From Candidatus Saccharimonadia bacterium (GTDB lineage: Bacteria; Patescibacteriota; Saccharimonadia; UBA4664): 64,000 nucleotides of DNA. The stretch covers positions 281,454 through 345,453 of the forward strand of contig DATKIP010000093.1 of the NCBI GenBank assembly GCA_035544015.1. The letters run 5' to 3'. The notes under the pieces were generated by a model that had not been told where the DNA came from, made no database searches, and saw nothing but the letters and a program-made list of their open reading frames with translations. Within the stretch, counting starts at the first letter, position 1. Every line of letters starts with the position of its first letter. The position numbers and the translations under genes were made by a program. This document shows positions 15,128 through 56,030 of the stretch, one piece after another.

Positions 15128-15154
15128 GGACTTGGCCCATAGTATACTACACAC

Positions 15155-16159: not shown

Positions 16160-16195
16160 TTCAACACAGGTGACCGACCACGCCTCTCCGGCTGA

Positions 16196-16285: not shown

Positions 16286-16341
16286 CCTTCTCAGCGGACA
16301 CATCCCACCCAACCTCGCCTGAAATTCTGTATAATCAAGCC

Positions 16342-28840: not shown

Positions 28841-29302
28841 ATGGAAACCCCCGATAGCAGTCGCCAATCCGGTCTCTTCCACCCGCTTCGTCACGCCACA
28901 TTGCGCTTCGCAATCCTGGCCCTGGCCGCCGCGGGCATTGCCGCCTACGCCGCCTTCAGCCACAGCCGCACCCTCACCCTTGCCACCGCCCAACAGCCCG
29001 AAGCTTACACCGAGCTGTATTTCACCCACCCCGACAAGCTCGCCAAAACCGCCCCGGCCAGCCAATCTCGCATCATCGAATTTACCGTACACAATCTCGA
29101 AGGCCGCACCACCGCCTATCCCTACGCGATCTACCGCGATGACCAACAAATCGCCACCGGCACCATCACGCTAAACAACTTTGCAACCTCGCCGGTCAAT
29201 CAATCCCTCGTCATCGCAGGCACAAAGACGCGCACTATGATCACCGTCAAGCTTCTCAACACTGGCCAGTCGATTCACTTCTGGACCGAGCAACCATCGT
29301 GA
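28841..29302 (+). CDS. small membrane-anchored hypothetical protein (first gene of glycosyltransferase operon)
   Basis: 153 aa with one TM helix (LRFAILALAAAGIAAYAAF) followed by a beta-rich domain. Its stop overlaps the start of the next gene (ATGA-type coupling). Confidence 0.4.
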   Translation: METPDSSRQSGLFHPLRHATLRFAILALAAAGIAAYAAFSHSRTLTLATAQQPEAYTELYFTHPDKLAKTAPASQSRIIEFTVHNLEGRTTAYPYAIYRDDQQIATGTITLNNFATSPVNQSLVIAGTKTRTMITVKLLNTGQSIHFWTEQPS

Positions 29303-31137
29303 AACAGCCGCTCAAGAAAGTTACCGTTCTCATACCCTGCTACAACGAAGCCGAAAGCATCACCGGCGTCGTCACCGGCTTCCCCGTCCAGCAGATGAAG
29401 GCCCACGGCTACGCCCTCAAAGTCGTCGTCATCAACAACAACAGCTCCGACCAAACCGCCGCCGTCGCCCGAGCCGCCGGCGCCCAAGTGATCCATGAAA
29501 CCCGCCAAGGCAAGGGACATGCCATCCGCACCGGCTTCCACCGCGTCACCAAAGACACCGACTACGTCGTGATGCTCGACGGCGACTTCACCTACAACCC
29601 CGCCGAAATCATCCGGCTACTCGAACCCATCAACTCCGGCTTCTGCAACGTTGTCATCGGCTCGCGACTCGGCGGCCGCATCACGAGCGGCTCCATGACA
29701 ACCTTCAACCGCCTTGGCAACTGGATCTTTTCGCACCTCGTGCGCTACCTCTATCGCGTCAACGTCACTGATGTGCTCACCGGCTATTTCGCCTGGGACC
29801 GCCATGCCATCGAGCGGCTCCGTCCTCACCTCACATCCCAAGGTTTTGCCATCGAGATGGAAATGATCACCAAAATGGCCAAACTCGGCGAGGAAATCTA
29901 CTCGGTACCCATCAGCTACCACTCGCGGTCGGGCAGCTCTAGCCTGCGGCCCATCCGCGACGGCGCGCGCATTCTGGCCATGTATCTGCGCAACTTCTTC
30001 TGGCGGCCGGCCTCCACTGTCGAACGCGTCGCCTTCGTCTCCGACACTATCTATCCCTACAATATGGGTGGCAAAGAAACCCGCCTGGCCGAAATCACCA
30101 AACGCCTCGTCAAACCCGGCCGCGAAGTCCACATCTACACCATGAAGTGGTGGGACGGTCCCAAAACCATCATCGAAGACGGCATCCACCTCCACGCCAT
30201 CAGCCGGCTCCATCCCCTGTACCGCCACAGCCGGCGCTCGTTTCGTGAGGCGCTCATGTTTGGGTTCGCCACCTTCAAGTTGCTGTTCCAAAAATTTGAC
30301 ACTCTCGACGTCGACTCCATGCCGTTCTTTCCGCTATATAGCGCCAGAATCGTCTGCTGGCTGCGCGGCAAAAAACTCTACGCCACCTGGCATGAAGTCA
30401 CCGACCGGACCGCCTGGACGACCTATATCGGCACAATCCCTGGCACCATTGCCTGGGCCGTCGAGCGCCTCGCCACCGCGCTACCCGACCTCATCATCTC
30501 CAACTCCCAGCACACCACCCGACGCCTGCGCCAAAACGGCACCCGACCCCAAATCATCACCATCCCGCTCGGCGTCGACCTCGAAGCCATTTACTCCATC
30601 CAGCCGTCAGTGAGCACGAGCGACGTTATTTTCGTGGGGCGCCTCCTCCCGCACAAAAACGTCGACCTACTCGTCCACGCCATGGCCAAGGTCCAAAAAA
30701 CCAACCCCGAAATCCTCTGCCGCATCATCGGCAACGGGCCCGAAAGCCCCCGGCTCGAAGCCCTCATCCACAAACTCGGCCTCGCCGAAAACGTCCGCAT
30801 CAGCCCTTTTGTGCCCCTGCACTCAGAGCTTTACGGCCTCATGAAGGCCTCCAAAGTCTTCGTGCTACCCTCGATCCGCGAAGGCTTCAGCCTCGTAGTA
30901 GTCGAGGCCAACGCCAACGGCATCCCCGTCGTCACCACCAACCACCCCGACAACGCCGGCCGCGAGCTCATCATCGAAGGCGTCAACGGCTACCTCACTG
31001 ACCTCTCACCCGACAGCATCGCCCAAAAAATCCTGCTTGCGCTCGACCAGCAAACCACCCTGCACCCCACGCAAAACATCGAACAATACGACTGGAACAC
31101 CGTAGCCAAAAGCATCGAGAAGGTGTTTGCGCACTAA
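29299..31137 (+). CDS. bifunctional glycosyltransferase: N-terminal GT2 (polyprenol-phosphate sugar synthase/DPM1-like) fused to C-terminal GT4
   Basis: N-terminal VLIPCYNEAESI ... DGD ... signature of GT2. The C-terminal half has the GT4 motifs (FVGRLLPHKNVDLL ... EGFSLVVVEANANGIPVV). 612 aa. Confidence 0.75.
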   Translation: MKQPLKKVTVLIPCYNEAESITGVVTGFPVQQMKAHGYALKVVVINNNSSDQTAAVARAAGAQVIHETRQGKGHAIRTGFHRVTKDTDYVVMLDGDFTYNPAEIIRLLEPINSGFCNVVIGSRLGGRITSGSMTTFNRLGNWIFSHLVRYLYRVNVTDVLTGYFAWDRHAIERLRPHLTSQGFAIEMEMITKMAKLGEEIYSVPISYHSRSGSSSLRPIRDGARILAMYLRNFFWRPASTVERVAFVSDTIYPYNMGGKETRLAEITKRLVKPGREVHIYTMKWWDGPKTIIEDGIHLHAISRLHPLYRHSRRSFREALMFGFATFKLLFQKFDTLDVDSMPFFPLYSARIVCWLRGKKLYATWHEVTDRTAWTTYIGTIPGTIAWAVERLATALPDLIISNSQHTTRRLRQNGTRPQIITIPLGVDLEAIYSIQPSVSTSDVIFVGRLLPHKNVDLLVHAMAKVQKTNPEILCRIIGNGPESPRLEALIHKLGLAENVRISPFVPLHSELYGLMKASKVFVLPSIREGFSLVVVEANANGIPVVTTNHPDNAGRELIIEGVNGYLTDLSPDSIAQKILLALDQQTTLHPTQNIEQYDWNTVAKSIEKVFAH

Positions 31138-33428
31138 TGAAAATTCTTGTCGTCACACCCTACTTTGCGCCCGCCCTCGGCGGACTCGAAAATTACGCCC
31201 TCAACCTCGCCAAGGAGCTTCATGAGGCCGGACACGACATCGTCGTCGTCACCGCAAACCACCGGGGCAACCACCGCGTCCACGAAACCATCAACGGATT
31301 GCGCATTATCCGCCTACCCATCACCGCCAAACTCAGCAACACGCCAATCGGCCTGGGATGGTATTTTCAGCTGCGTACCATCATTCACACCGAGCAACCA
31401 GACCTCGTCAATGCCCACACGCCCGTACCGTTCATCGCCGACATGGCGGTGCGTGCCGCCGGACAAATCCCCACCATTCTCACGTACCACAATGATCTCG
31501 CCAAATCGAGCCTCCTCGGCCTGGTATTCACCAAGCTCTACTACGCACTGCTAGGCCGGCGTACGCTCCGCCTGGCCACCCGCATCATCACCACCTCCCA
31601 ATACTATGCCGACCTCTCGCCCTACCTCGCCGCCCATCGCGGCAAAATCGCTGTCGTGCCCCCGGGCGTCGATATCGCCGCCTATCACTCCGGCATCGAC
31701 AAAACCTGGCTGCACCAGCGTCACGCCGGCCAAAAGATTGTGCTCTTCGTGGCCTCGCTCAAAAAATCCCACGCGCACAAAGGCCTGAATATACTGCTCC
31801 AATCATTCGCCCGGGCCTTGTCTCACGAAGCCAACCTCCATCTAGTCGTGGTAGGGGAGGGCGACGGCACAGCCGGGTATCAACAGCAAGCCAATAGCCT
31901 CGGCCTCAGCTCTCGCGTCACCTTCGCTGGCCGCGTCAGCGACGAAGCCCTGCCGCGCTATTTCGCCGGCGCCGATGTGGCCGTATTGCCATCCGTCAAT
32001 GCCTCCGAGGGCTTCGGCATGGTACTCCTCGAGGCCCAAGCCTGCGGCACGCCCGTGATTGGCTCCCGCATCGGCGGAATCCCGGCTGTCGTCGAGCACG
32101 GCCGCACCGGCGAGCTCGTGGCCGCATCGTCCGTTCCCGAGCTCACCAGCTCGCTCCTGCGCATCCTGGGCGACGACGCCTACGCCGCACGCCTCGGCCG
32201 ACGCGGCGCCGAAACCGTTGCCGCCAACTTTAGCTGGCAGCACCAAGCCCAACGATTCGAAGCCATCGCCATCGCCGTACTCGACCAGCATCCCCAAACC
32301 ATCGTTCAGGTCGTCTCCTACTACCCGCCCCATACCGGCGGGATGGAAAACGCTGCCCGCGAAATCTCGCACCAGCTCGCAGCCCTGGGACACCACGTCG
32401 AAATATTCACCTCAAACATCGCTGCCCCCGCCGGACGCACCCAAGAATCAGGCTGCACCGTCCATCGGCTACCCAGCCTCGAAATCGCTCACACCCCCAT
32501 CATCTGGAGCCTCTTTTGGCAGCTCATGACCGTAAAACACCCCAGCATCATCCACGTCCACGTCGCTCAAGCCTACACGCCCGAAATCGCCTACCTCGTC
32601 AGCCGCCTCCGCCGCATCCCGCTCGTGCTCCACTTTCACCAAGACGTCGGCGCCTCCGGTCTCGCCGGCAAAATCTTGCCCATCTACAAAAAGTTCAGCC
32701 TCGGACCCTTACTCCGAAGAGCCGAGCTCGTCATCGCCATTTCTCCCACCTATCGCCAGTTTCTCGTTGATGCTTATCGCCTCCATCGCCTCGCCATCGT
32801 ATCCAACGGCGTCGGCCCCGAATTCTTCACCCCCAAAACCGGCTTCAAACCCGATTCCAAACGCCCCCTCCGGCTCCTCTACGTGGGCCGGCTCTCGTGG
32901 GAAAAAAACGTGGGCCTGCTCATCGAAGCCACCAAAAACCTGGGGCGCCCCGTCGAGCTCCAGATCGTCGGCAATGGTCCGCTCGAGCAAAACCTAGCCC
33001 AAATCATTGCCGCCAGCCCCCACCCTCACGCCCACATCACCATGGCCGGCTACAAAACCAAAGCCGAACTACCCGCCTATTACCGTCAAGCCCAGATGGT
33101 TCTCATAGCCTCAGACTATGAAATTCAGCCGCTCGTGGCACTCGAGGCCATGGCAAGCGGCACTCCCGTCATCGGCTCGCGCATTCCCGGGCTCATCGAT
33201 ACGCTCGGCGACGACGGACTCATCGTAGACAAAACCGCCACCGCCTTCCGCGACGGTATTCTGCAGCTCGCGGATAACCCAACGCTCTGGCAAACCCTCA
33301 GCCGACGCGGCCAAGCCAAAGCCAAGCGCCTCAGCTGGGACCAAGCCGCCACCCAGCTCGATACCCTCTATGCCGCCCTCTCCGCTCACCATCCCGCCCC
33401 CGCCGCCAAAACCGAGACCGCCCAATGA
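31137..33428 (+). CDS. tandem double GT4 glycosyltransferase (two complete GT-B modules)
   Basis: Module 1: MKILVVTPYFAPALGG ... EGFGMVLLEAQACGTPVIGS. Module 2: VQVVSYYPPHTGGMEN ... QPLVALEAMASGTPVIGS. 763 aa. The start overlaps the previous gene's stop by 1 nt. Confidence 0.75.
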   Translation: MKILVVTPYFAPALGGLENYALNLAKELHEAGHDIVVVTANHRGNHRVHETINGLRIIRLPITAKLSNTPIGLGWYFQLRTIIHTEQPDLVNAHTPVPFIADMAVRAAGQIPTILTYHNDLAKSSLLGLVFTKLYYALLGRRTLRLATRIITTSQYYADLSPYLAAHRGKIAVVPPGVDIAAYHSGIDKTWLHQRHAGQKIVLFVASLKKSHAHKGLNILLQSFARALSHEANLHLVVVGEGDGTAGYQQQANSLGLSSRVTFAGRVSDEALPRYFAGADVAVLPSVNASEGFGMVLLEAQACGTPVIGSRIGGIPAVVEHGRTGELVAASSVPELTSSLLRILGDDAYAARLGRRGAETVAANFSWQHQAQRFEAIAIAVLDQHPQTIVQVVSYYPPHTGGMENAAREISHQLAALGHHVEIFTSNIAAPAGRTQESGCTVHRLPSLEIAHTPIIWSLFWQLMTVKHPSIIHVHVAQAYTPEIAYLVSRLRRIPLVLHFHQDVGASGLAGKILPIYKKFSLGPLLRRAELVIAISPTYRQFLVDAYRLHRLAIVSNGVGPEFFTPKTGFKPDSKRPLRLLYVGRLSWEKNVGLLIEATKNLGRPVELQIVGNGPLEQNLAQIIAASPHPHAHITMAGYKTKAELPAYYRQAQMVLIASDYEIQPLVALEAMASGTPVIGSRIPGLIDTLGDDGLIVDKTATAFRDGILQLADNPTLWQTLSRRGQAKAKRLSWDQAATQLDTLYAALSAHHPAPAAKTETAQ

Positions 33429-35791
33429 AGCTGCGCTCCATTCGCACCATCTGGCTCCTTCCGCTACTCATCACCCTCGCCGTCGTCCTCAATATTCTCG
33501 TGTTCACCATCCCATACTTCGACCCCATCAAGGCCGTGCTTGGGTTTGCCTGGTTATTTTTGGCTCCCGGTTGGTTCATTGCCCAAATCATCCGCCTCAA
33601 AACCCCCAGCCACGGTGAATACGTTGGCTTCATTGTCGGCTTTAGCACCCTCGCCACCATGCTCACGACGCTCCTCATCAACACCACCCTCATGCTACTT
33701 GGCAACCCGCACCCCCTCGATGCCCCCAACCTGATGATCGGAACCGATATCGCCTGGAGCGCCCTGCTCGCGGGCGCCCTCTGGCGCCATCGCGCAGGCC
33801 TGCCATCACAACGAATCTCCCTACCCCAAGCCATACCAAACCCACCCTGGCTCCTCACACTGGGCGCACTAATCCCCGTAGCCCTCGCCATCCTGGGCGC
33901 CAACAGCCTCAACAACCACGGCACCAATCTCTTCACCGTCGGCCTGCTCCTCTACCTGGCCGCCTACCTCGGATACCTCGTCACCCGTCGCAGCCAATTC
34001 AGCGAAAACGCCCTCGTGCTCGCGCTCTATGGCACCGCGCTCGCTCTCCTTTTCATGACCAGCCTGCGCGGCTGGACCACCACCGGGCACGACGTCCAGG
34101 CCGAATATCATGTGTTTCTCCTCACACTCAACCATCTCAGCTGGAACATGGCCAACTTGCGCGACGCCTACAACGCCTGTTTGAGCATCACCGTACTACC
34201 TACTATTGTTCACCAAATAACCGGTATCAACGAGGGATATGTCTACAAAATCGTCTTCCAGATGATCTTTGCCCTCGTACCCGGCATGGTGTACCTCATA
34301 GCCCGAAACTACGCCTCGCGTCTTGTAAGCCTGTTGGCGGCAATTTACTTCATGGCCTTTCCCACCTTCTTTGGCGATATGCCGATGCTCAACCGCCAAG
34401 AAATCGCCTTCGTATTCCTGGGGCTTATCTTTCTCACCATCTTCAATGCCGATTGGCGCCTCGGCCAAAAACGCTGGCTCATTGCGACACTCAGCCTCGG
34501 CGTAGTGCTGTCACATTACTCCACCACCTATACCATGATCGCCATGTTTGCAATCTTCCTCGCACTCAGCACCAGCCTCAAATTCATCACCAACCACCTT
34601 GATTCCTCTCGTCAGCGCCTACACCTATTTCTCGCCCGCTGGCGCAAACCCAAGCCCTCTCCAATCAGCCTGTGGGTAATCGCCATGCTTCTCGCAAGCA
34701 GTTATATCTGGAGCATCCAGCTCACGGGCACCGGCGGCAACCTCGCCCGCGTCGCCCTCGGTACCGTCCAAAGCATTCGCACCGGCATAGCGGGGGAGAA
34801 CCGCTCCAGCGATACCAGCTACAGCCTACTCGCCAAAACCCACGCCACCACCCAACAGCGCCTCGACGGCTACCTCCAGCAATCCGTACCCCAGGACCGA
34901 GCCAAAGCCGATCCCGCCACCCTCTATCCGACCCAAACTTACGCACCATACCCCGTAAAAGCCGCCACCGACGAAAATCTCGCCCTCACACCGATCGGCC
35001 AGCGCCTATCAGCTGCCGGCATCAATGTTCCCGCTCTCAACGCCCTCATCCGCCAAAGCTCGGCCGCCCTCCTGCAACTCGTCCTGATCGTCGGCATCTT
35101 GCTCCTATTTATAGGCTACCGATTCGCCGGCCATATCACCCGGCGGCACTACACCGAATACCAGCTCTTTGCGCTTTCCACCATCTGCATTCTTGCCATG
35201 ATCGTTCTCCTCCCGGTCATCTCAGCCGAATACGGCCTCCTGCGCGCCTTCCAGCAAATGTTGCTGGTGTCTGGCAGCGCCATTGCGCTAGCCACCATCG
35301 CCCTCGTTCCCGCACGCTACCGCCGAGCTCGACAGATCATCCCGTCCGCGCTAGCCATCGCGTTTCTGCTCTCGTCCACCGGGGTTTTCACCACCCTGCT
35401 CGGAGGCTACCCCGGCCAACTACACCTTGCCAACAGCGGCAAATATTACGACCTCTACTACCCCCATGCCAGCGAAGAACGCGCCGCCGATTGGCTTGAA
35501 AGCACCAACACCATCTTCTATCACCGGGGCAATGGCGGCTCCGGCATCTACGCCGACCAGCCCACCTATGCCAAAATCCAAAGCTTCACCTCGCTGAGCC
35601 TCAAAGGCGGATTGTATCCCGGCCTCATCAAACGTAACGCCTACGTATTCCTGGGATACACCAATGTTACGAAGCAGCAGGCCCTGCTATCGGTCGACGG
35701 CGACGTCATCACTTACCAATACCCGCTCCAGTTCCTGGACGATCAAAAAGACTTGCTATACTCCAGCCAAACCACCCGGATATATCGATGA
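33425..35791 (+). CDS. large polytopic membrane protein, GT-C-fold-like glycosyltransferase candidate
   Basis: 788 aa, 13 or more predicted TM helices, followed by a C-terminal soluble domain of roughly 150 aa. Embedded between glycosyltransferase genes with 4-nt overlaps on both sides. No WWDYG motif was seen. Confidence 0.5.
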   Translation: MKLRSIRTIWLLPLLITLAVVLNILVFTIPYFDPIKAVLGFAWLFLAPGWFIAQIIRLKTPSHGEYVGFIVGFSTLATMLTTLLINTTLMLLGNPHPLDAPNLMIGTDIAWSALLAGALWRHRAGLPSQRISLPQAIPNPPWLLTLGALIPVALAILGANSLNNHGTNLFTVGLLLYLAAYLGYLVTRRSQFSENALVLALYGTALALLFMTSLRGWTTTGHDVQAEYHVFLLTLNHLSWNMANLRDAYNACLSITVLPTIVHQITGINEGYVYKIVFQMIFALVPGMVYLIARNYASRLVSLLAAIYFMAFPTFFGDMPMLNRQEIAFVFLGLIFLTIFNADWRLGQKRWLIATLSLGVVLSHYSTTYTMIAMFAIFLALSTSLKFITNHLDSSRQRLHLFLARWRKPKPSPISLWVIAMLLASSYIWSIQLTGTGGNLARVALGTVQSIRTGIAGENRSSDTSYSLLAKTHATTQQRLDGYLQQSVPQDRAKADPATLYPTQTYAPYPVKAATDENLALTPIGQRLSAAGINVPALNALIRQSSAALLQLVLIVGILLLFIGYRFAGHITRRHYTEYQLFALSTICILAMIVLLPVISAEYGLLRAFQQMLLVSGSAIALATIALVPARYRRARQIIPSALAIAFLLSSTGVFTTLLGGYPGQLHLANSGKYYDLYYPHASEERAADWLESTNTIFYHRGNGGSGIYADQPTYAKIQSFTSLSLKGGLYPGLIKRNAYVFLGYTNVTKQQALLSVDGDVITYQYPLQFLDDQKDLLYSSQTTRIYR

Positions 35792-36975
35792 AAATACTTA
35801 TGGTCATCAGTCAAGGCTACGTCGGAGGCGGAGCTGAAAATAGCTTAATGCTCACACGCTCTGAGCTTCTGGCGCGAGGGCATCAAGTCAAAATTCTGTC
35901 CGCCGATGACCCCAAGCATGATTTATTTTCCGACTACACGTTTCGCACCATCCCTCTCCACTCGCCGCTCAAAGCCCTCCATCACCTCTTCTACGTGCGG
36001 TCATACCGAGCACTCAAGGCCGCTATCCGTGACTTCCAGCCCGATGTCATTCACTTCCACACCCTCGGTTCATGCAGCCCCTCGATACTCTTTGCCGCCG
36101 GCCGCGTCCCCGCCGTCATGACCATCCACGGACCCGAGGAGTTCACCCTGAGCTTGCTCCCATGGTTCCTCGGCGCCAGCGATTTCAAAAATCAGGATTT
36201 TGACACCGCTCATCTCACCTTCACCGGATTCCTCAAATACCAGTACTTTAGGTTTGTACAACGACCCATCTACCGGCTCGGGCTCAAGCGCTTGCGCCAC
36301 GTTATGGCTCCGAGCCGCTATATGCGTCGCACCACCCACACCGACTTCCCTGGCGTACCGATGACCGTCGTACCAAATGGTATCAAGCTACCATCCGCCC
36401 ACGCCCTGCCCCCCAGCCCAACCCTCCTGTTCGTAGGCCGCATCGAACCGCTCAAAGGAATCAACTACCTACTCCAAGCGTTTGCGCAGGCAACACCCGT
36501 CCTTCCCCTGCTCAAACTCCGTATCGTCGGCACCGGCCCCCAACTGCCAGCCCTCCGGCAAGCGGCCATCGATTTGGGCATCGCCCACCAAACCGAATTT
36601 TGCGGCTGGATCCAGCCCAGTCACATTCGCAATGAGTACCTCAGGTCCTCGGCGCTCGTCATACCCTCAATTTGCCCCGAGGCCTTCGGGCTGGTGGCAG
36701 TCGAGGCTATGGCTACCGGCCGACCCGTCATCGCCACCGACCTAGGCTCACTCCCAGAACTTGTCACGCACGCTCACACCGGACTCGTCGTGCCCCCAGC
36801 CGACGCGAACCGCCTGGCAGCGGCCATCGTACAGCTCTTTCAAACCCCAGGCCTCCTACCCAAACTAGCCGCCGAAGCCGCCCAGTCTGCTCAGCGGTTT
36901 TCAATTACTCGCCACATCGACCAGCTCGAAACCATCTATCGCGATGCCACCGAACCATCCGCAACGCCGCTTTGA
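35788..36975 (+). CDS. GT4 family glycosyltransferase
   Basis: MKILMVISQGYVGGGAEN ... FVGRIEPLKG ... EAFGLVAVEAMATGRPVIATDLGSLPELV. Confidence 0.8.
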   Translation: MKILMVISQGYVGGGAENSLMLTRSELLARGHQVKILSADDPKHDLFSDYTFRTIPLHSPLKALHHLFYVRSYRALKAAIRDFQPDVIHFHTLGSCSPSILFAAGRVPAVMTIHGPEEFTLSLLPWFLGASDFKNQDFDTAHLTFTGFLKYQYFRFVQRPIYRLGLKRLRHVMAPSRYMRRTTHTDFPGVPMTVVPNGIKLPSAHALPPSPTLLFVGRIEPLKGINYLLQAFAQATPVLPLLKLRIVGTGPQLPALRQAAIDLGIAHQTEFCGWIQPSHIRNEYLRSSALVIPSICPEAFGLVAVEAMATGRPVIATDLGSLPELVTHAHTGLVVPPADANRLAAAIVQLFQTPGLLPKLAAEAAQSAQRFSITRHIDQLETIYRDATEPSATPL

Positions 36976-37135
36976 CCATAGGCGTTATATACCATACCAT
37001 TGGCTTAGTGTCAGATAGGAATGTGCCATAAAGCCGCTCAAAAAACTCGACCATCTCCTTCAAAAACCCCTCAAGCGTCCATGGTTCACCTCAGGAACGC
37101 TGGTAGCTTTAGCCATCTTCACCTTTAGCTCGACG

Positions 37136-38329
37136 TTGATTTACCTCACCGATTTCTATCAACCCCACCACACTCCCAGCCAGCCGCACAACGCCGCTGA
37201 CATCGCCGGAGCCGCCTCTACCGTTCGACCAAGCCCCTCCACCGCCCCAGCGGCCAAACAGTCCATCGCTGAGCCCAAGGCCATGTCCGGCCCCGCGCCT
37301 ACCCCAGGGCCACTCAAGGGCTACGGCATCGCCGTGGGCAACACCCTACCCGGACTACCCGCCGATGAGCTTGCCCGGCGACTCGATGACTTCAAGGCCC
37401 TTGGCATCGCTTGGATTCGCCTCGATTTCGACTGGAACGACCTCCAGCCCAGCAACGCGGCGAGTTTTTCGTGGTCGCAGCACGACAAAGTCGTCGCAGC
37501 CGCCAATGCCCGCGGCCTGCGTCTCTTGCCAATTCTCACCTACACCGCACCCTGGGCCCGCCTTCCCGCCTGTGGCTCAAATCCTCGCTGCGCCCCCGCC
37601 GATCCCGCCCAATACGCCAATTTTGCCCGCGAAACCGCCCGGCACTACGCCCCCCTCGGCATTCATCACTGGGAAATTTGGAACGAAGAAAATAGCCAGG
37701 GCGCCTGGGAACCAGCCGCCAATGCCGCCGATTACGTTCAATTCCTCAAGGCCGCCTACACCAGCATCAAACAAATCGACGCCTCTGCCACCGTCATATC
37801 TGGCGGGCTCGCCTCCAGCAGCAACGCCGACGGCATTCCGCAGCTCGATTACCTCCGGGCTATGTATGCCGCTGGGGCCAAACCATATTTCGACGCCATC
37901 GGCTACCACCCCTATTCCTACCCCGTACCCGCCTCGTACAACATCACCTGGAACGCCTGGTCTCAAATGGGCTTCACGGCCATTAGCCTGCGCTCAATCA
38001 TGGCCGCAAGTGGCGACGACGCCAAGCAAATCTGGGTCACGGAATACGGCGCACCCACCGGCGGTCCCAGCACCGAAGCTAGCTCCCAGGATTACCATCT
38101 CAACGACTCACCCGACCATGTCACCGAAGAATTCCAAGCCCAAATCGCCGCGGACGTTATTCGCAGCGCCCACAACGCTCCCTGGATCGGCCCACTGTTT
38201 TGGTACGGCTACCGAGATGAGGGCACATCGACAGACTCAAACGAAAACTTCTTCGGCCTCATTCGGGCCGACGGCTCACCGAAACCCGCCTACGAAGCCC
38301 TCAAGCAGGCCATAGCCGGCAATCAGTAA
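37136..38329 (+). CDS. TIM-barrel glycoside hydrolase (GH5/GH39-like), likely secreted
   Basis: A WEIWNEEN acid/base region and a VTEYGAPTGG nucleophile region. The track ORF begins at TTG 37136, but the in-frame upstream sequence encodes a hydrophobic anchor with no canonical start. See findings. Confidence 0.55.
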   Translation: MIYLTDFYQPHHTPSQPHNAADIAGAASTVRPSPSTAPAAKQSIAEPKAMSGPAPTPGPLKGYGIAVGNTLPGLPADELARRLDDFKALGIAWIRLDFDWNDLQPSNAASFSWSQHDKVVAAANARGLRLLPILTYTAPWARLPACGSNPRCAPADPAQYANFARETARHYAPLGIHHWEIWNEENSQGAWEPAANAADYVQFLKAAYTSIKQIDASATVISGGLASSSNADGIPQLDYLRAMYAAGAKPYFDAIGYHPYSYPVPASYNITWNAWSQMGFTAISLRSIMAASGDDAKQIWVTEYGAPTGGPSTEASSQDYHLNDSPDHVTEEFQAQIAADVIRSAHNAPWIGPLFWYGYRDEGTSTDSNENFFGLIRADGSPKPAYEALKQAIAGNQ

Positions 38330-39684
38330 ACCTGGATTTCGGCCAGTCCAATATTAGCCGTCCCATTCGCCACACCCGTCACATTAAACTGCACGCTTGT
38401 TACCACCCGCGGCGAAAAAGTTACCGTGGTCGCTGTCCCATCATTATTCAGTGTACCCACCGCCACTTTCGACCCGTCACTAAAAACCAAAGTTCCCGCG
38501 GTTACTTGATCGGCAGCATTTGGGCGGTCAAACAGCACCATCCGGCCAACCGTACGCGCCGACGACCACGTCAGCTTGATCCAGCTACCGCCCGAGCCAC
38601 CAACAGTGGCCCATTCCTTGGTGTAATCGCCAGGATAACCATCAATCACGCCGTCAATCGCCCGAATAGCCAACTGGCCACTCGATCGATCCTCCGAAGA
38701 CGCCGTCACCTGAGCCAACCCCGCCAGGTTGCCACCGATAGGGGAGGGGACCGAGTTTGAAGCCGTACCCCCGCCAGATTCCGTTCCCACTGCATATTGG
38801 CGAGCCAGCCAACCCTCAAACTCACCGTTGCGACACGCCAGCAAACTGTTGCAGACGTCGTGATCATAGTTCGCATACGCATAAAAGGCTTCAGATTTTT
38901 TCGTCAGATCACCACGCGCCACATTCGCCGGATTAGCCGAATCCAAGTAACCTTCGTAGCCCGTCAAGGTATGTGGCTGCGAGTACTGCTGATGAGCCGC
39001 CCGCGCAAAATACGCCGACGCGTGGTGGTCGGCATGATCGCCGTCCCCAAAGGCGCCGCTATAATCTTGAATATGAATCCGATCCGGCGCAAAGCTCGCC
39101 ATCATCGCCGCCAGCGCCCCTACCAAGGTATCTTTGCTATAACTTGCGCTCCCATCAACCGCGCTGATCGACGAAATCGATCCCAGCCATAACTTTTGCA
39201 AACTCTCAAAATTATGCGTATTAAAGCCCGCTCCATCCATCCCACCGTCAGGCAGCCGCAAAAACACCAGAGACACCGTAGGCTTGCCGACCAGCGTATA
39301 GGCCCGTACATGCATCCCGAGCACGCCCGCATCCGAAATATTCCATGTTCCGAGGCCCGTTCTGCCAGCCATTTTGGCGTAAGCCGCCTTCATCCCATTT
39401 TCCCGACCCTGCCAATACGACGCCGGCGCACCCGAATCACCCGCCGTCATAAATATCGTCCGCACACACCGACCCGAGGTGATGTCGTGCAATAAATCCG
39501 GACTCATAAACAACAAATCGTCGTCTTCATGCGCCACAATATTCAAAGTCGAGCCCTGGGTACAACCAGCCGCACCCACCAAATCATCCGTCGATACGTT
39601 CAAAATCACACTCGAGGCCACTGCCACCACGAGCACGCTCATACCCACTACCGAAATTTTGCGCCACCCACTACCGAACATCAT
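38323..39684 (-). CDS. PIG-L/LmbE family N-acetylglucosaminyl deacetylase fused to discoidin-like carbohydrate-binding domain
   Basis: Signal peptide, VAHEDDDLLFMSPD (PIG-L AHPDDE-type motif), a His-rich metal site (HADHH), and a C-terminal beta-sandwich ending LAEIQVY (F5/8 type C-like). Confidence 0.6.
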   Translation of the reverse strand: MMFGSGWRKISVVGMSVLVVAVASSVILNVSTDDLVGAAGCTQGSTLNIVAHEDDDLLFMSPDLLHDITSGRCVRTIFMTAGDSGAPASYWQGRENGMKAAYAKMAGRTGLGTWNISDAGVLGMHVRAYTLVGKPTVSLVFLRLPDGGMDGAGFNTHNFESLQKLWLGSISSISAVDGSASYSKDTLVGALAAMMASFAPDRIHIQDYSGAFGDGDHADHHASAYFARAAHQQYSQPHTLTGYEGYLDSANPANVARGDLTKKSEAFYAYANYDHDVCNSLLACRNGEFEGWLARQYAVGTESGGGTASNSVPSPIGGNLAGLAQVTASSEDRSSGQLAIRAIDGVIDGYPGDYTKEWATVGGSGGSWIKLTWSSARTVGRMVLFDRPNAADQVTAGTLVFSDGSKVAVGTLNNDGTATTVTFSPRVVTSVQFNVTGVANGTANIGLAEIQVY

Positions 39685-39738
39685 GTCTTGGCTCCTTGTA
39701 GCAATAATTAATCATCTCACGTTCCCCCAAAAATACCA

Positions 39739-41025
39739 TTACCGCTTGCGATTACCCCGCCTCAGCCGTGGCCCCCAAGCCGCCATGGCCATGCCGCACC
39801 CACCCGCCACGATATGCCCCACCAGCCAAGCCCAGGCCGCCCACACCAGCCCACGCCCCGTCCAGGCCAACGCCAACCCAATAATGACCGTCGCAAACAC
39901 CACGTTCATCGCAATAATGCTATAAATCTGCTTGCGCACCCGCAACAACACCACCGCCACGGTATAAACAGCCAACGCTGGCGCTGCCAGCGCCAAAACC
40001 GCCAGCGTGGTGCTCGCTTCCAAACTGTAAGTTTTACCAAACACCAAGAGCAACCACGGCGAACACAGCGCCAGTAAGGCCGATGCCGGCACCATAATCA
40101 GCGCCAATATCGTCACGGCCCGGCGCACCAACACCGCCAGCTCTTCCTCCGAATGCGAACCCTCCGCAAACAACGACTGCGCCACCGAATAGGCCGTAGT
40201 GTATAGCAAGTTCGCCACCATAAACGCCAGGTAAAAGTACCCCGCCTCGGCCGCCCCCAGCCGGTTTACCACTACCAGCGGCAGGGCCATCGTCGGCGCA
40301 ATATTCAGGCAATTTGCCACATAATTCGCCGATGCAAAGCTAAAAACCCGCCCCACCACCGCCCGATGAATCCGCCACTCCGGCCGATACGAAAACCGCC
40401 TCACCATATAGTACACACTCAGCCCCAGCGCCAAAACCGCCGCCACCCCCGAAGCGAAGAAAATTCCGTAGGCGCCCAGCCCAATCACCGCCACCGGCAG
40501 CATCAACTTGGCCAAGCTCATAATGCTGTTGATCAGCAAATTATACTGACTTGCCCGATACGCTATAAACACGCTGTCGGTCAGCAAATTTATGGCTGCC
40601 ATCGCCGCCAGCACCACAAAACCCAGCGCAAACCAGGCATTCGTACGCACAAAATCAAGCCGAGGCGCGAGCCACGGCAACAGCCCCACGTACGCCGCCG
40701 AAATTACCACCGCCGTCCCCGCCACCAGCAACAAACCCGTATTAAGCTCCTCGTTGCGCTCAATGCTCTTGGGCAAAAACCGTATAAAGGCGCTGTTCAC
40801 GCCCAACAAACTAAAATACGAAATGAGCGTCATGCCCGATATCAAGGCCGTCCCGTAGCCGATCTGGTCGGGAGTAAACAGCCGCGCACACAACCACCAA
40901 AAACCAAAGCCCAACACCGACATCACAGCCGTGCTCAACATCAAAAAAAATGAGTTGCGAAACAGGCTGTCTGAACGAAGATGATGAACAATCCGAGATG
41001 GAGAAACAAGCGATATCATAAGCAA
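39739..41025 (-). CDS. Wzx-type oligosaccharide flippase (polysaccharide biosynthesis protein, MOP superfamily)
   Basis: 428 aa, about 12 TM helices. N-terminal FRNSFFLMLSTAVMSVLGFGFW is typical of PST-family flippases. Confidence 0.7.
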   Translation of the reverse strand: MLMISLVSPSRIVHHLRSDSLFRNSFFLMLSTAVMSVLGFGFWWLCARLFTPDQIGYGTALISGMTLISYFSLLGVNSAFIRFLPKSIERNEELNTGLLLVAGTAVVISAAYVGLLPWLAPRLDFVRTNAWFALGFVVLAAMAAINLLTDSVFIAYRASQYNLLINSIMSLAKLMLPVAVIGLGAYGIFFASGVAAVLALGLSVYYMVRRFSYRPEWRIHRAVVGRVFSFASANYVANCLNIAPTMALPLVVVNRLGAAEAGYFYLAFMVANLLYTTAYSVAQSLFAEGSHSEEELAVLVRRAVTILALIMVPASALLALCSPWLLLVFGKTYSLEASTTLAVLALAAPALAVYTVAVVLLRVRKQIYSIIAMNVVFATVIIGLALAWTGRGLVWAAWAWLVGHIVAGGCGMAMAAWGPRLRRGNRKR

Positions 41026-45875: not shown

Positions 45876-46973
45876 GTGAATAATCCGAAGACTACAAACC
45901 AGGTTACCAACACAAGCGGTCGTCCCGATGGGGGCGATTTTTTTGTAACCAAGCCAGGTCGGCTGGTTTTGGAGGGCGGTCAAAGCTTCGCCGGCCAGGT
46001 CCCCGACTGGCACCACGACGGCCTCTCCGGCGAAACCGTCTTCAACACTGGCATGACCGGCTATGTCGAAACCCTCACCGACCCGTCATATTCCGGCCAA
46101 ATTCTAGCATTTACTTATCCGTTACTGGGCAATTACGGCGTACCCGACGCCGGCACCTGGGAAAGCCAAAAAATCCATCTGCGCGGGGTGGTCGTGAGCG
46201 AGCTCACACAGGCCTGGAGCCATGTAGGCAGCCTTAAGTCGCTCGGCGCCTGGCTGCGCGAACAAAACATCCCGTTCATCACCGGCGTCGACACCCGCGC
46301 GCTCACCAAATACCTCCGCACCCGCGGCACCATGACCGGCCTCATCACCACCGCCGACCGGCCGCGACTAGCCGGACGAGCGCCCGCCAAAGTTTCAATT
46401 GAAGCCCCCCGCATCTACAACCCCGGTAAGTCTAAAACCGTCATCGCTGTGGACTGCGGCATGAAAGAAAACATCATCCGCCACTTGGTAGGGCTGGGCC
46501 TCACGGTAAAGCGCGTGCCGCACAACTACGACTACACCGCCGACGCCTACGACGGCGTTTTCATCTCCAACGGCCCCGGCGATCCCACCGATTACCAGGA
46601 AGCCACCGCCATACTCCGGCGGGCACTAGCCGGCACCAAGCCTGTCTTCGGCATCTGCCTCGGCGCGCAGCTCATGGCGCTGGCGGCCGGTGGCTCCACC
46701 TACAAACTCCGCTTCGGCCACCGCGGCCACAACCAACCGGCCGTCACCCCCGAGGGGCGCGGCTACATCACGAGCCAAAACCACGGCTACGCGGTCGCCG
46801 AGGATTCGCTGCCGGCAGATTGGCGCGTCACCTTCCGCAATCTCAACGATAATTCGGTCGAGGGCATCGCCCACCGCCACAAACCCTTCTTCGCCGTCCA
46901 ATTCCACCCCGAAGCCGCCCCCGGACCCACCGACACAGCCTGGCTGTTTGACGAATTTAGGAAGATGCTATGA
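45876..46973 (+). CDS. carA: carbamoyl-phosphate synthase small (glutaminase) subunit
   Basis: GTG start preceded by GGAGG. N-domain VFNTGMTGYVETLTDPSY. Triad motifs GICLGAQL and FAVQFHPEA. Confidence 0.9.
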   Translation: MNNPKTTNQVTNTSGRPDGGDFFVTKPGRLVLEGGQSFAGQVPDWHHDGLSGETVFNTGMTGYVETLTDPSYSGQILAFTYPLLGNYGVPDAGTWESQKIHLRGVVVSELTQAWSHVGSLKSLGAWLREQNIPFITGVDTRALTKYLRTRGTMTGLITTADRPRLAGRAPAKVSIEAPRIYNPGKSKTVIAVDCGMKENIIRHLVGLGLTVKRVPHNYDYTADAYDGVFISNGPGDPTDYQEATAILRRALAGTKPVFGICLGAQLMALAAGGSTYKLRFGHRGHNQPAVTPEGRGYITSQNHGYAVAEDSLPADWRVTFRNLNDNSVEGIAHRHKPFFAVQFHPEAAPGPTDTAWLFDEFRKML

Positions 46974-49900
46974 CACTCAAATTGCCCAAAAAAGTCCTCA
47001 TTCTCGGCTCTGGCGGGCTCAAAATCGGCCAAGCCGGGGAGTTCGACTATTCCGGCTCCCAGGCCATTATGGCCTTCAAAGAAGAAGGCATCAAAACCGT
47101 TCTCATCAACCCCAACATCGCCACGGTCCAAACCGATGGCGACATGGCCGACACCGTTTATTTCCAACCTCTCACCGCCGAGATCGTCACGCGCATCATC
47201 GAAGCCGAGCGCCCCGAAGCCATCGCGCTGAGCTTCGGCGGTCAAACCGCGCTCAACCTCGGCCTGGCGCTCCACCACAGCGGCGTGCTCGCCCGTCACA
47301 ACGTGCGCATCCTCGGCACCCCCATCACCGCCGTGGAAATCACCGAAGACCGCGAGAAATTCAAGCAAGCGCTGGCCGAAATCGACGTCCACACCGCTCG
47401 CAGCACCAGTGTCTACACCGTGGATGAGGCGCTGGCCGCTGCGGCCGAAATCGGCTACCCCGTGATGATGCGCGCCGGTTTTAGCCTCGGCGGCCTCGGC
47501 TCCGGCCGCGTCGCCAGCGCCGCTGAGCTCGCCTCCCGCGCCACTGAAGTCTTCCAAGCCACCAGCCAAATCCTCATCGAGGAATTCCTCGGCGGCTGGA
47601 AAGAGATTGAATACGAAGTCGTGCGCGACGCCACCGGCAACGTCATCACCGTTTGCAACATGGAAAACTTCGACCCCATGGGCATTCACACCGGCGAATC
47701 CATCGTGGTGGCGCCCAGCCAAACCCTCACCAACGCTGAATACCACGGCCTACGCGAAGTCGCCATCAAAACCATCCAACACCTCGGCATAGTGGGGGAG
47801 TGCAACATCCAATACGCCCTCGATCCCGCCACCAGCGACTACCGCGTCATCGAAGTGAACGCCCGGCTGAGCCGCTCCAGCGCCCTGGCCTCCAAGGCCA
47901 CCGGCTACCCGCTCGCGTTCGTAGCCGCCAAACTCATGCTCGGCCACACCTTGCCCGAATTAAAAAATGCCGCCACCGGCTCCACCAGCGCCTTCTTCGA
48001 ACCCGCCCTCGATTACCTGGCTGTCAAAATGCCCCGCTGGGACCTCACCAAACTCGGCTCCTCCGACCGCAGCATCGGCTCCGAAATGAAAAGCGTGGGC
48101 GAAGTCATGGCGCTGGGCCGATCGTTTACCGAAGCCCTCCAAAAAGCCGTGCGCATGACCAACACCGGCGCCTCCGGCCTGAGCGACCATCCGTACGATT
48201 TTGCCCATCCCGAAGCCGAAATCGGCCAAGCCACCGACCACCGGCTCTACGCCCTCTACGACTACCTCAAACAATCCGGCACCGTCGCCGACGCCCACAA
48301 ACGCACCGGCATCGATCCCTGGTTCCTCAGTCAACTCGTGCGCATCGCCGATATCGAGCACCAGCTCACGAGCTCCAGACTCACCCCCGAGCTCATGCGC
48401 CGCGCCAAGCAAAACGGCTTCGCCGACATTACCATCGCCGGTCTCACCAGCACCACCGAAGACACCATTCGCGCCCGCCGGCTCGCCTCCGGCATCAAGC
48501 CCGTCATCAAGCAAATCGACACCCTTGCCGGCGAGTTCGATGCCACCACCAATTACCTCTACACCACCTACCACGGCGATCAAAACGACGTCGATCCCAT
48601 CGGCGCCCGCCCCGCCATCGTGCTCGGCTCGGGCCCGTACTGCATCGGCTCCTCCGTCGAATTCGACTGGTGCGCCGTGGGCGTCGCCGCCACGCTCCGC
48701 CGCAGTGGCCGCCGCACCATCATCGTCAACTCCAACCCCGAAACCGTCTCCACCGACTTCAACCGCTCGGACCGCCTCTACTTCGAGGAACTCACGCTCG
48801 AACGCCTGCGCGACATCGCCGACTTCGAAGCCCCCGCCAACTTCGTGATCTCCGTCGGCGGCCAAATCGCCAATAACCTCGCCGTACCGCTGGCGGACGC
48901 CGGCTACACCATCCTCGGCACCCCCGCCGCCTCCATCGACCAGGCCGAAAACCGCCGCCATTTCTCGAGCATGCTCGGACGCCTCGGCATCGACCAACCC
49001 GAATGGGACGAAGTCACCACCCTGGCCAAGGCCCAAGCCTTTGCCCGCAAGGTCGGTTACCCCGTGCTCATCCGGCCCTCGTACGTGCTCTCGGGCGGCG
49101 CCATGAGCGTGGTTACCACCCCCGAAGAGCTCGCCGGCTACCTCGCCCGCGCCACCAAGCTCTCGCCCGACCACCCCGTGGTCATCTCGCGCTTCATCGA
49201 AGGCGCCAAAGAACTCGAAATCGACGGCGTAGCCGACCACGGCACCATCGTCATCTCCGCCATCTCCGAGCACATCGAAAACGCCGGCGTTCACTCCGGC
49301 GACGCCACCGTAGTACTGCCGCCCCAGCGGCTCTACCTCGAAACCATCCGCCGCGCCAAAAAAATCACCGCGCGCATCATCAGCGAGCTCGACGTCACCG
49401 GCCCCTTCAACATCCAATTTATCGCCAAGGACAATGACCTCAAAGTCATCGAAACCAATGTTCGCGCCAGCCGCAGCTTCCCGTTCGTCAGCAAGGTCAC
49501 CGGCCACAATTTCATCACGATTGCCACCCAAGTCATGTTGGGCACATACAAACCCGAGCACTACGAAACCCTCGAGCTCGATTACGTCGGCGTCAAAAGC
49601 CCTCAATTTTCCTACAACCGTCTCAAAGGCGCCGATCCCGTGGCCGGCGTCGAAATGGCCTCCACCGGCGAAGTCGCCAGCATCGGCCGCAACCTGCTGG
49701 AAGCCTTCTACGCTTCGTGGCTCTCCACCGACCAACCGCTCATCGGCAAACACATCTACATCAGCGTACCCGACGATCAAAAACCCAAAATCGTCGAAGC
49801 TGCTGCCGGCGTCGTCGCAGCCGGGTGGACGATTTTTTCCACCCTCGGTACCCACGACTATCTCGCCGCCCACGGCATCGCCTCCACGCCGCTCTACAAA

Positions 49901-53261: not shown

Positions 53262-53723
53262 ATGAACCAACAACCAGCCCCCGACGCCGCCTTCCTGGCC
53301 CACCTCAAAAGCGCCGGCGAGCGCGTCACCACCCCCCGGCTCACCATCTTTCGCCTGCTCGCGCGGCACAGCCCGCTGCCCATGCGCAAGCTCGCCGACC
53401 GCGCCGCCGGCGACGGCGTCGACAGCGTAACCGTCTATCGCACCATTGCGCTCTTTACGCGGCTGGGCTTCGTACGCGAAATCGGCATGGGCAGGCACCG
53501 CCTGCTAGAACTCAGCGACGACTTCGGCGAACACCACCATCACTTTTGGTGCAGCCAGTGCGGCGCCGTCACCGATTTCGACAATCCCGAACTCGAACAA
53601 GCCATTCATGCCGCTTCCCAAGCCCTCGGGCTTACCGTGCAAGCTCACCAGCTCGAAATTACCGGCCTCTGCGCCGCCTGCAGCCGACTAGCTCAATCCT
53701 CGCGAAACGCCCACAACTTATAG
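53262..53723 (+). CDS. Fur family transcriptional regulator (Zur-like)
   Basis: Winged-helix N-terminus, HHHFWCSQCG and CAAC metal-binding motifs. Divergent from the metal ABC importer. Confidence 0.8.
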   Translation: MNQQPAPDAAFLAHLKSAGERVTTPRLTIFRLLARHSPLPMRKLADRAAGDGVDSVTVYRTIALFTRLGFVREIGMGRHRLLELSDDFGEHHHHFWCSQCGAVTDFDNPELEQAIHAASQALGLTVQAHQLEITGLCAACSRLAQSSRNAHNL

Positions 53724-55958: not shown

Positions 55959-56030
55959 GATTTACTTTCGGTTTTAGTTCGGTATAATACCTTGGCACAA
56001 CCGTTATACTGATAATCAAGGATACTCACC

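Follow-up and report, generated by a model that had tools for sequence, protein, structure and literature searches.

A DUF2206-centred gene module of Saccharimonadia and its proposed role in surface-glycan assembly

Introduction

How might a bacterium assemble a surface glycan from a gene cluster that encodes several glycosyltransferases (GTs), a flippase and a GT-C-like membrane enzyme, and that contains neither a phosphoglycosyltransferase (PGT) nor a Wzy polymerase? This question is raised by eight genes at positions 28841-41025 (~12 kb) of a 64,000-nucleotide (nt) stretch of DNA from a Candidatus Saccharimonadia bacterium (assembly GCA_035544015.1, contig DATKIP010000093.1, positions 281,454 to 345,453), which we refer to as the window. 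An initial annotation had described the genes as a glycan-assembly supercluster of unusual gene architecture that could serve protein O-glycosylation or the decoration of a wall glycopolymer. We compared the cluster with related loci from other genomes, and examined its proteins by profile searches and, for two of them, by structure prediction.

With a probability of roughly 40%, we propose that the eight genes form a self-contained pathway, conserved by vertical descent, for a surface glycan, likely a polymer; it would run on polyprenyl monophosphate and operate without a PGT or Wzy. More tentatively, this would be a PGT-independent, archaeal-style route present in at least four phyla, in which the DUF2206 protein at the centre of the cluster is the missing polymerase or oligosaccharyltransferase.

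Results

A compact cluster of eight genes

The eight open reading frames (ORFs) that the initial annotation had placed in the cluster are all present, and their products, given in amino acids (aa) where a length is stated, are as follows.

28841..29302, plus strand: 153-aa bitopic protein with a transmembrane helix and a CARDB-like beta-sandwich, DUF1616-type (weak DUF1616 match, 19.6 bits)
29299..30033, plus strand: GT2 domain of a 612-aa fusion, DPM1/AglJ/ArnC-type (Pfam Glycos_transf_2, residues 9-170)
30034..31137, plus strand: GT4 domain of the same 612-aa fusion (Pfam Glyco_transf_4 and Glycos_transf_1, residues 256-587)
31137..33428, plus strand: 763-aa double GT4 protein with two complete units (each GT4 Pfam family matches twice)
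33425..35791, plus strand: 788-aa DUF2206 protein with a modelled GT-C_A fold (Pfam, 44.8 bits; AlphaFold2 and Foldseek)
35788..36975, plus strand: 395-aa GT4 protein (Pfam GT4 families; EX7E motif EAFGLVAVE)
37028..38329, plus strand: PslG-like GH39 endoglycosidase (canonical ORF from TTG 37136, 37136-38329; weak Glyco_hydro_cc match)
38323..39684, minus strand: 453-aa protein with a PIG-L (LmbE-type) de-N-acetylase domain and a DUF7402/discoidin-like (F5_F8_type_C) domain (Pfam)
39739..41025, minus strand: 428-aa flippase of the MOP superfamily, Wzx-type (Pfam Polysacc_synt_3, 56 bits)

The first five genes had been reported to follow each other on the plus strand with overlaps of 1 to 4 nt, and reading the junctions gives overlaps of 4, 1, 4 and 4 nt (GTGA at 29299, TAATG at 31137, ATGA at 33425 and ATGA at 35788). 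Pfam likewise bears out the GT2-GT4 fusion, the double GT4, the single GT4, the PIG-L-discoidin protein and the Wzx flippase of that description, so that the cluster holds four GT4 domains, one in the 612-aa fusion, two in the 763-aa protein and one in the 395-aa protein. The genes on either side are unrelated, TerC/DUF475 bordering the cluster at one end and an RNase T-GIY-YIG protein at the opposite end.

The cluster had also been said to lack Wzy and a polysaccharide co-polymerase (PCP). Indeed, we found no PGT, Wzy or PCP either in the cluster or across the 64-kb window, no Wzy_C or Wzz match inside the cluster, and no STT3-family match, PCP or LCP ligase among the cluster proteins. The Wzy_C gene noted earlier is present at 16342-17622, ~11-12 kb upstream of the cluster, where it adjoins a WecG/TagA gene. 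Genes for a CE4 deacetylase or a pyruvyl transferase occur nowhere in the window.

The 788-aa DUF2206 protein is modelled as a GT-C_A glycosyltransferase

The 788-aa protein matches the Pfam family DUF2206 (PF09971) with 44.8 bits, above the gathering score of 35.6, and is hence a member of this family; an identical NCBI protein from a Candidatus Saccharimonadia metagenome-assembled genome carries the name 'DUF2206 domain-containing protein'. Its match to PMT_2 is weak and sub-threshold (20 bits), and a sequence search of the PDB gave no match even at E<=10. To STT3, AglB and PglB there is no Pfam, NCBIfam or PDB sequence match and the likeness is one of fold only, the WWDXG motif not having been searched for. 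The family is large: at a cutoff of E<=1e-3 it counts 4836 clusters (50% identity), and 2708 of these reach E<=1e-30. Literature searches on DUF2206, PF09971 and DUF1616 returned nothing functional, and DUF2206 was mentioned in no paper found.

An AlphaFold2 (AF2) model of the protein, built on a 57-sequence alignment, reached a mean predicted local distance difference test score (pLDDT) of 90 and a predicted TM-score of 0.92. It contains ~17 transmembrane helices and a C-terminal alpha/beta domain at ~660-788 that we assigned to the extracytoplasmic side. When the model was compared to the PDB with Foldseek, ranks 1-19 were occupied exclusively by GT-C_A glycosyltransferases (E 5e-5 to 5e-2, TM-scores 0.3-0.45), including DPY19, AftA, STT3 of yeast and human, PglB, ArnT, ALG12 and AftD. 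The model thus assigns a GT-C_A fold to the protein, in agreement with the earlier description of it as GT-C-like. A transporter identity was considered as well and rejected, as no transporter match was significant (MFS, POT and CLC proteins had a Foldseek probability <0.15 and TM-scores of ~0.1).

The 57-sequence alignment contains three groups of invariant residues, namely R215/G221-H222-D223/E227, D318-M319/R324-Q325 and H364-Y365/T367/Y369. Of these, G221-H222-D223 and E227 come after the helix 194-213, and D318 comes after the helix 299-316. Since GT4 domains that are fused to the GT-C protein in other genomes are always located N-terminally, the N-terminus of DUF2206 should be cytoplasmic, and together with the helix count this would place all three motifs on the outer face, matching the catalytic loops of GT-C enzymes. 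In the pathway proposed below, D223/E227 and D318 in these presumed outer loops are the probable catalytic and metal-binding residues. The N-terminal residues 1-190 (33425-33995) form six extra transmembrane helices, with a further helix between them and the first conserved motif; in this six-helix module N86 and G158 are invariant and L162-N163-N164 is present in at least 90% of the sequences.

The GT2 domain resembles polyprenyl-phosphate glycosyltransferases

The GT2 domain had been described as DPM1/GtrB-like, and its DXD motif proved to be intact, with D93-G-D95 aligned to DAD of DPMS from Pyrococcus furiosus; the GSR and D..tG(f/y)FA motifs are matched in this enzyme as well. Its neighbours in the PDB are led by DPMS (5mlz, E 1.5e-11) and ArnC (5e-9), followed at ~1e-3 by GT2 enzymes that elongate glycans, and a weak match exists to PglI, the beta-glucosyltransferase that acts on an undecaprenyl-pyrophosphate (Und-PP) glycan. 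Among the NCBIfam profiles, the best match is AglJ (TIGR04182; 194 bits, E 3e-57), of which positions 1-213 of 293 are covered, and the runners-up are a haloarchaeal dolichyl-phosphate (Dol-P) hexose transferase (96 bits) and then PpgS and ArnC. Judged by its sequence, the domain is AglJ-like, not an AglJ equivalog, and belongs to the DPM1/GtrB/ArnC type of polyprenyl-phosphate glycosyltransferase-like enzymes; hence its acceptor would be a polyprenyl phosphate. Between residue 217 and the GT4 domain lies nothing more than an amphipathic stretch.

GT4 enzymes are retaining and depend on nucleotide sugars. All four GT4 domains of the cluster retain the EX7E motif, which reads EGFSLVVVE in the 612-aa fusion, whose GT4 domain has GtfA, MshA, BshA and PimA as PDB relatives. 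In one related locus (L001), the orthologue of the double GT4 protein is 974 aa long and possesses an additional N-terminal CE4 deacetylase domain.

The module is conserved across four phyla

A scan of one genome per species gave 204 loci with relatives of the DUF2206 protein, 80 of which were retrieved and compared by tblastn and all-against-all clustering of their genes. These loci originate from Saccharimonadia and Paceibacteria (Patescibacteria), from many Actinomycetota (Pseudonocardia, Actinoplanes, Streptomyces, Kitasatospora, Mycobacterium, Acidimicrobiia and Thermoleophilia), from Ktedonobacteraceae and from Acidobacteria. The module is syntenic in the 80 loci from four phyla (Patescibacteria, Actinomycetota, Chloroflexota-Ktedonobacteria and Acidobacteriota), none of which shares the TerC and RNase T genes that flank it here, so that chance is far from explaining the arrangement.

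Frequencies were determined in the 56 full-flank loci that have at least 7 kb on either side. GT4 enzymes are present in 55-56 of them. In 55, the 395-aa GT4 has a homologue no more than 10 kb from the DUF2206 gene, a count in which GT4 paralogues cross-match; in loci such as L006, L012, L016 and L018 such a homologue directly follows the DUF2206 gene. The MOP flippase is found in 54 of the 56 loci, GH39 in 46, the GT2 in 42, a CE4 polysaccharide deacetylase in 39, the CARDB-like protein in 26 and a pyruvyl transferase in 16 (19 loci in all). TerC, RNase T, Wzy_C, WecG and GtrA occur in none (0/56). The families conserved with the module over the 80 loci include no second flippase and no PGT, Wzy, PCP or LCP. 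We also asked whether Wzy_C and WecG, encoded ~11 kb upstream, might be a missing ligase or primer partner, and rejected this since the two genes are never syntenic with the module. A stand-alone gtrA had been counted among the components of the pathway; the gene exists at 53693-54208 (GtrA_DPMS_TM, 48 bits), 12.7 kb from the cluster, but it is not part of the system, as none of the 80 loci has a gtrA homologue at 10 kb or less from the DUF2206 gene, and 54 of the 56 have a MOP flippase instead.

The components are also joined by gene fusions. The GT2-GT4 fusion occurs in 8 loci besides this window, and proteins of up to 1980 aa in other genomes combine one, two or three GT4 domains with DUF2206. 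The CE4 domain is fused to the double GT4 in L001 (CE4-GT4-GT4) and is encoded by a stand-alone gene elsewhere. Some high-GC actinobacterial loci seemed to have C-terminal 'GT-C-GT4' and 'MOP-GT4' fusions as well; these were discarded as over-long ORFs in another frame, since the translation upstream of the GT4 is an R/P/A-rich nonsense sequence. Eight related clusters additionally encode an accessory family of ~410 aa (10 members, often in two copies; L001 at 13676-14920, also L002, L013, L017 and L027), which has no Pfam match and whose motif SFFSGGVDSFYT resembles a PP-loop ATP pyrophosphatase; it may be a sugar-amidating or sugar-modifying enzyme.

The architecture is hence that of a discrete, self-contained and widespread module and not of an idiosyncratic supercluster, and the synteny comparison does not sustain the notion of an unusual gene arrangement.

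Extracytoplasmic components and the flippase

The 153-aa protein had been taken for a small membrane anchor. It is a membrane protein, but its conserved part is an extracytoplasmic CARDB-like sandwich, so that the protein is bitopic. Its L001 orthologue passes the DUF1616 threshold (37.7 bits vs 31.6). A word-indexed homologue search gave 3 matches. The AF2 model, built on a 3-sequence alignment, consists of a helix at 14-49 followed by a 7-strand beta-sandwich with pLDDT 80-93. In Foldseek, the sandwich is most similar to the CARDB domain of archaeal PF1109 (E 5e-5) and also resembles the Fn3-like domain of GH3 enzymes. In the family alignment, T57, L59, N85, E87 and Y93 are invariant. As the conserved residues all lie in the outer domain, the protein is more than a cytoplasmic GT2 anchor.

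The presumed secreted TIM-barrel hydrolase is indeed a glycoside hydrolase, specifically a PslG-like GH39 enzyme, whose orthologues are membrane-anchored. The profile of the hydrolase family matches PslG of Pseudomonas (5bx9) with E 6.4e-39, followed by GH39 xylosidases. In the GH39 catalytic pair, N183-E184 (acid/base) is invariant and T302-E303 (nucleophile E303) is nearly invariant, being present in at least 90% of the sequences. The orthologues have an N-terminal transmembrane anchor and a low-complexity linker rich in S/T/P. In the window, the sequence ahead of TTG 37136 encodes the anchor helix WFTSGTLVALAIFTFSSTLIYL in the same frame, and no ATG, GTG or TTG precedes the helix. The start region at 37020-37140 contains an ATA at 37028 behind AGGA and, close to A-rich homopolymer runs, an ATG that is out of frame. 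Translation would start either at the non-canonical ATA at 37028 or at the out-of-frame ATG, from which a homopolymer indel would have split the ORF.

The PIG-L protein scores 50.5 bits against a PIG-L threshold of 28.2 and 179 bits for DUF7402, carries the zinc motifs AHEDDD and HADH, and has an N-terminal signal anchor, features by which it is most likely an extracellular de-N-acetylase. Besides this window, only L016, L034 and L039 have its gene, and CE4 is absent from all four. This looks like a non-orthologous displacement of CE4 by PIG-L/DUF7402, in which a cytoplasmic step would have become an extracellular one. Orthologues of the MOP flippase are 35-56% identical, and a promoter-like site lies ahead of the flippase gene on the minus strand (41086-41058).

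Other features of the window

A second envelope module, not linked to the glycan cluster, occupies 12628-18463. Its first gene encodes a sortase (12628-13707) and the next, on the minus strand, a PEGA-domain protein of 775 aa (13715-16042); then come the O-antigen-ligase-like Wzy_C protein (16342-17622) and the WecG/TagA glycosyltransferase (17615-18463), after which a DUF4367 protein follows. The regions 3958-5408, 45876-50152 and 55188-58939 hold genes of metabolism and repair, and the genes of the window include an F420-0:gamma-glutamyl ligase-like protein, a RibD_C protein, both subunits of carbamoyl-phosphate synthase, and an end-joining pair of Ku and a full-length LigD (phosphoesterase-ligase-primase). 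Saccharibacteria genomes are typically reduced, and this Saccharimonadia gene set seems unusually rich in metabolism and repair.

The strand asymmetry of the window is extreme, with a GC content of 0.593, a GC skew of -0.24 (-0.13 to -0.32 in every 2-kb bin) and an AT skew of +0.14; among the 80 related loci, the GC skew has a median absolute value of 0.02 and a maximum of 0.17. At third codon positions, the GC skew in the plus-strand sense is ~-0.5 to -0.6 for most sampled genes of both strands, and -0.12 for one gene. As the third-position skew is similar on either strand, it indicates a bias of replication or mutation rather than an effect of the coding strand. From the translations, we have the impression that plus-strand proteins are rich in H/Q/T/P and that the minus-strand PIG-L protein is rich in G/V.

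Discussion

Proposed assembly pathway

We infer the following order of steps for the module. At the cytoplasmic face, the AglJ/DPM1-like GT2 would load the first sugar onto undecaprenyl phosphate (Und-P), and the fused GT4 together with the three other GT4 domains would add alpha-linked sugars including an N-acetylhexosamine, giving a lipid-linked oligosaccharide of ~five sugars; these enzymes may form a membrane-associated complex tethered to the GT-C protein. The MOP flippase would then carry the lipid-linked intermediate to the outer face, where the DUF2206 GT-C_A protein would take it as donor and either polymerise the units or transfer the glycan en bloc to an acceptor. The membrane-anchored PslG-like GH39 would trim or release the chain, and the glycan would be de-N-acetylated by the secreted PIG-L/DUF7402 protein or, in most relatives, by the cytoplasmic CE4. 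The CARDB-like bitopic protein may act as an accessory subunit at the outer face.

Several observations argue for this pathway. The best curated family of the GT2 is AglJ, with 194 bits vs 96 bits for the next, and its DXD and acceptor-side motifs align to DPMS. AglJ, DUF1616 and DUF2206 form a joint archaeal signature, the latter two being families defined on archaeal proteins. The modelled GT-C_A fold and the gene fusions that link the components also speak for the pathway. The pathway furthermore uses only functions that are actually conserved, since one flippase and one GT-C suffice, and the GT2-GT4 fusion would join consecutive enzymes. AglJ is the archaeal enzyme that puts the first sugar of an oligosaccharide on Dol-P, and in Haloferax AglJ, AglG, AglI and AglE build on a single Dol-P carrier until the MOP-type Agl15 flips the Dol-P-tetrasaccharide (PMC3871713). 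An archaeal exopolysaccharide depends on AepG, a DPM1-like Dol-P glycosyltransferase (PMC9943897), and a less direct precedent is a glucan of Lactobacillus johnsonii that requires a bactoprenol glycosyltransferase and a flippase (PMC7117936).

That the product is likely a polymer is suggested by the conserved PslG-like GH39 with its catalytic residues. A deacetylase together with a hydrolase is a typical exopolysaccharide pairing, and a pyruvyl transferase is typical of the decoration of repeat units. In terms of the CAZy mechanisms, GT4 enzymes make axial alpha-D bonds and clan GH-A enzymes such as GH39 cut equatorial bonds. Hence, the target of the GH39 is most likely a bond made by the GT-C or the GT2, a deduction that fails if L-sugars are involved, and this in turn speaks for a bond that the GT-C forms repeatedly and hence for a polymer.

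Comparison with known systems

One close likeness is to the Agl N-glycosylation pathway of Haloferax volcanii (AglJ/G/I/E, flippase, AglB; AglD-AglR-AglS), in which the DPM1-like GT2 AglJ primes polyprenyl monophosphate, other cytoplasmic GTs elongate on the same carrier, the MOP-type AglR/Agl15 translocates and a GT-C transfers outside (PMC3871713). Unlike there, the hosts of the module are bacterial, elongation falls to GT4 enzymes, the GT-C is a DUF2206 protein without STT3/AglB match, and GH39 and the deacetylases point to a polymer and not to a protein-linked glycan.

With Psl of Pseudomonas, a Wzx/Wzy system, the module shares several GT4s and a GT2, a Wzx-type MOP flippase, a membrane-anchored PslG-type GH39 and optional pyruvylation and deacetylation; in contrast to Psl, it has no starter of the PslA/WbaP/WecA type, no Wzy, PCP or OPX, and a GT-C_A protein stands in the place of the polymerase. 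The three-component systems GtrA/GtrB/Gtr*, ArnC/ArnD/ArnE-F/ArnT and GacI/GacK/GacL likewise encode a polyprenyl-phosphate GT2, a flippase and a GT-C together. GacK is an example of a MOP protein that works as the flippase, and ArnD, which is CE4-type and acts on a lipid-linked sugar, parallels the CE4 of the module's relatives. Unlike these systems, the module lacks a GtrA or SMR flippase, its GT2 is joined to a GT4 and has no transmembrane helices, GH39 and four GT4 domains are integral to it, GT4s are fused to the GT-C in other genomes, and no separate backbone pathway is evident.

Alternative readings

Several points weigh against the proposed pathway. The GT2 scores below the AglJ equivalog cutoff (194 vs 325 bits), is devoid of the transmembrane helices that GtrB, ArnC and DPMS have, and is missing near the GT-C in 14 of the 56 full-flank loci. 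The Foldseek TM-scores are modest, at 0.36-0.44, and the matches mix enzymes that use mono- and oligosaccharides. We know of no GT-C_A polymerase of lipid-linked repeat units, no experiment exists on any member of the DUF2206 family, and the pathway could be primed by a housekeeping WecA/TagO from another part of the genome, a TagA/WecG gene being present in the window. To our knowledge, moreover, nearly all characterised GT-C_A enzymes that stand beside a DPM1-like GT2 use a polyprenyl-phosphate monosaccharide as donor, which favours a lipoglycan- or GPI-like route that we regard as the main rival, possible but somewhat less probable. Here, the GT4s would build a glycolipid acceptor on a membrane lipid (diacylglycerol, phosphatidylglycerol or phosphatidylinositol), the deacetylase would turn N-acetylglucosamine (GlcNAc) into glucosamine, and the glycolipid would reach the outer face; the GT2 would make a polyprenyl-phosphate monosaccharide, flipped by MOP or GtrA, from which DUF2206 would extend the glycolipid, possibly processively. 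Lipomannan is made in this manner by PimA/PimB, Ppm1 and PimE/MptA/MptB, and the glycosylphosphatidylinositol (GPI) anchor by PIG-A/PIG-L, DPM1 and PIG-M, and the module has the same kinds of components as the pathways of phosphatidylinositol mannosides (PIMs), lipomannan, lipoarabinomannan and GPI, namely cytoplasmic GT4s (PimA, PimB, PIG-A), PIG-L, a DPM1/Ppm1-type GT2 and an extracytoplasmic GT-C. The GT2 is DPM1/ArnC/PpgS-like with a DXD motif, the Foldseek neighbours include the monosaccharide-donor enzymes DPY19, AftA, ArnT, ALG12 and AftD, and the GT4s, which resemble PimA, PimB, MshA, GlcNAc-phosphatidylglycerol synthase and monoglucosyl-diacylglycerol synthase, are accompanied by a CE4 or PIG-L de-N-acetylase. 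The lack of a PGT would be explained equally well, GT4-GT-C fusions suit an acceptor-maker joined to its extender, and the cluster is common in lipoglycan-making Actinomycetota, with which the taxonomic distribution overlaps, and in their Saccharibacteria epibionts. However, such a route requires two translocations whereas one flippase is conserved and GtrA is never syntenic, and the GT2-GT4 fusion or adjacency would couple different branches of the pathway. The deacetylase of the window is extracytoplasmic with a glycan-binding-type domain, which would be odd for a single core GlcNAc. The GT4 similarity is generic, and PimE, Mpt and PIG-M share only the fold class with DUF2206, which belongs by sequence to no GT-C family of PIM or lipomannan synthesis and matches DUF2206 and, sub-threshold, PMT_2 alone; unlike the genes of those pathways, the module genes form one compact operon with a MOP flippase and GH39.

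That the carrier is instead the canonical Und-PP appears unlikely. WecA/TagO encoded elsewhere would prime Und-PP-GlcNAc, the GT4s and the GT2, then an ordinary beta-glycosyltransferase, would finish the unit, Wzx would flip it, and DUF2206 would replace Wzy or act like PglB on an Und-PP donor. Many O-antigen clusters are without a primer of their own, and, judging by its TagA/WecG gene (17615-18463), the organism makes Und-PP-GlcNAc. The oligosaccharyltransferases STT3 and PglB are among the Foldseek neighbours, the GT2 weakly matches PglI, and MOP/Wzx proteins classically flip Und-PP-oligosaccharides (PMC11127046). Against this, the GT2 is far closer to polyprenyl-phosphate glycosyltransferases (DPMS 1.5e-11, ArnC 5e-9, AglJ 194 bits) than to elongating GT2s (~1e-3), no PGT is found among the neighbour families conserved over 80 loci and four phyla, and the cluster has no STT3 match, PCP or LCP ligase. 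Least probable of all, in our view, is a three-component decoration, in which an Und-P-sugar made by the GT2 and flipped by GtrA would let the GT-C attach single sugars to a separately made wall glycopolymer or protein. This logic is well established (PMC11127046), and a GtrB/DPM1-type GT2, a GT-C and gtrA are all present in the window. Yet gtrA is 12.7 kb away and syntenic in 0/80 loci, the neighbouring Wzy_C and WecG genes are not conserved with the module, and the co-conserved four GT4 domains, MOP flippase and GH39 as well as the GT4-GT-C fusions found elsewhere would be left without a role. The wall-glycopolymer decoration suggested initially fits poorly with the GT4-GT-C fusions, the conserved PslG-like endoglycosidase and the lack of a primer or polymerase for a separate backbone, and nothing points specifically to the protein O-glycosylation suggested along with it.

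Implications

Every component of the module comes from a known superfamily, and the logic of cytoplasmic assembly, flipping and GT-C transfer is already known. What is new is the combination: an uncharacterised GT-C family takes the place of the polymerase or transferase, and the conserved module around it, which has neither PGT nor Wzy, is shared by bacteria of the candidate phyla radiation and Actinomycetota. DUF2206 is a large family of no known function and stands at the centre of this module in the ultra-small epibiotic Saccharibacteria, in other Patescibacteria and in many Actinomycetota. If the proposed pathway is true and the GT-C protein polymerises or transfers a polyprenyl-monophosphate oligosaccharide, this would be a new mechanism of bacterial glycan assembly and a new GT-C activity, and it would add a further general route to the Wzx/Wzy, ABC-transporter, synthase and sucrase routes. 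Even if the product is a lipoglycan, an extracytoplasmic transferase and a full candidate pathway would have been identified that can be tested in culturable Pseudonocardia, Actinoplanes and Streptomyces. For bacteria of the candidate phyla radiation, the proposed pathway would provide a handle on their surface glycans, which probably mediate attachment to the host.

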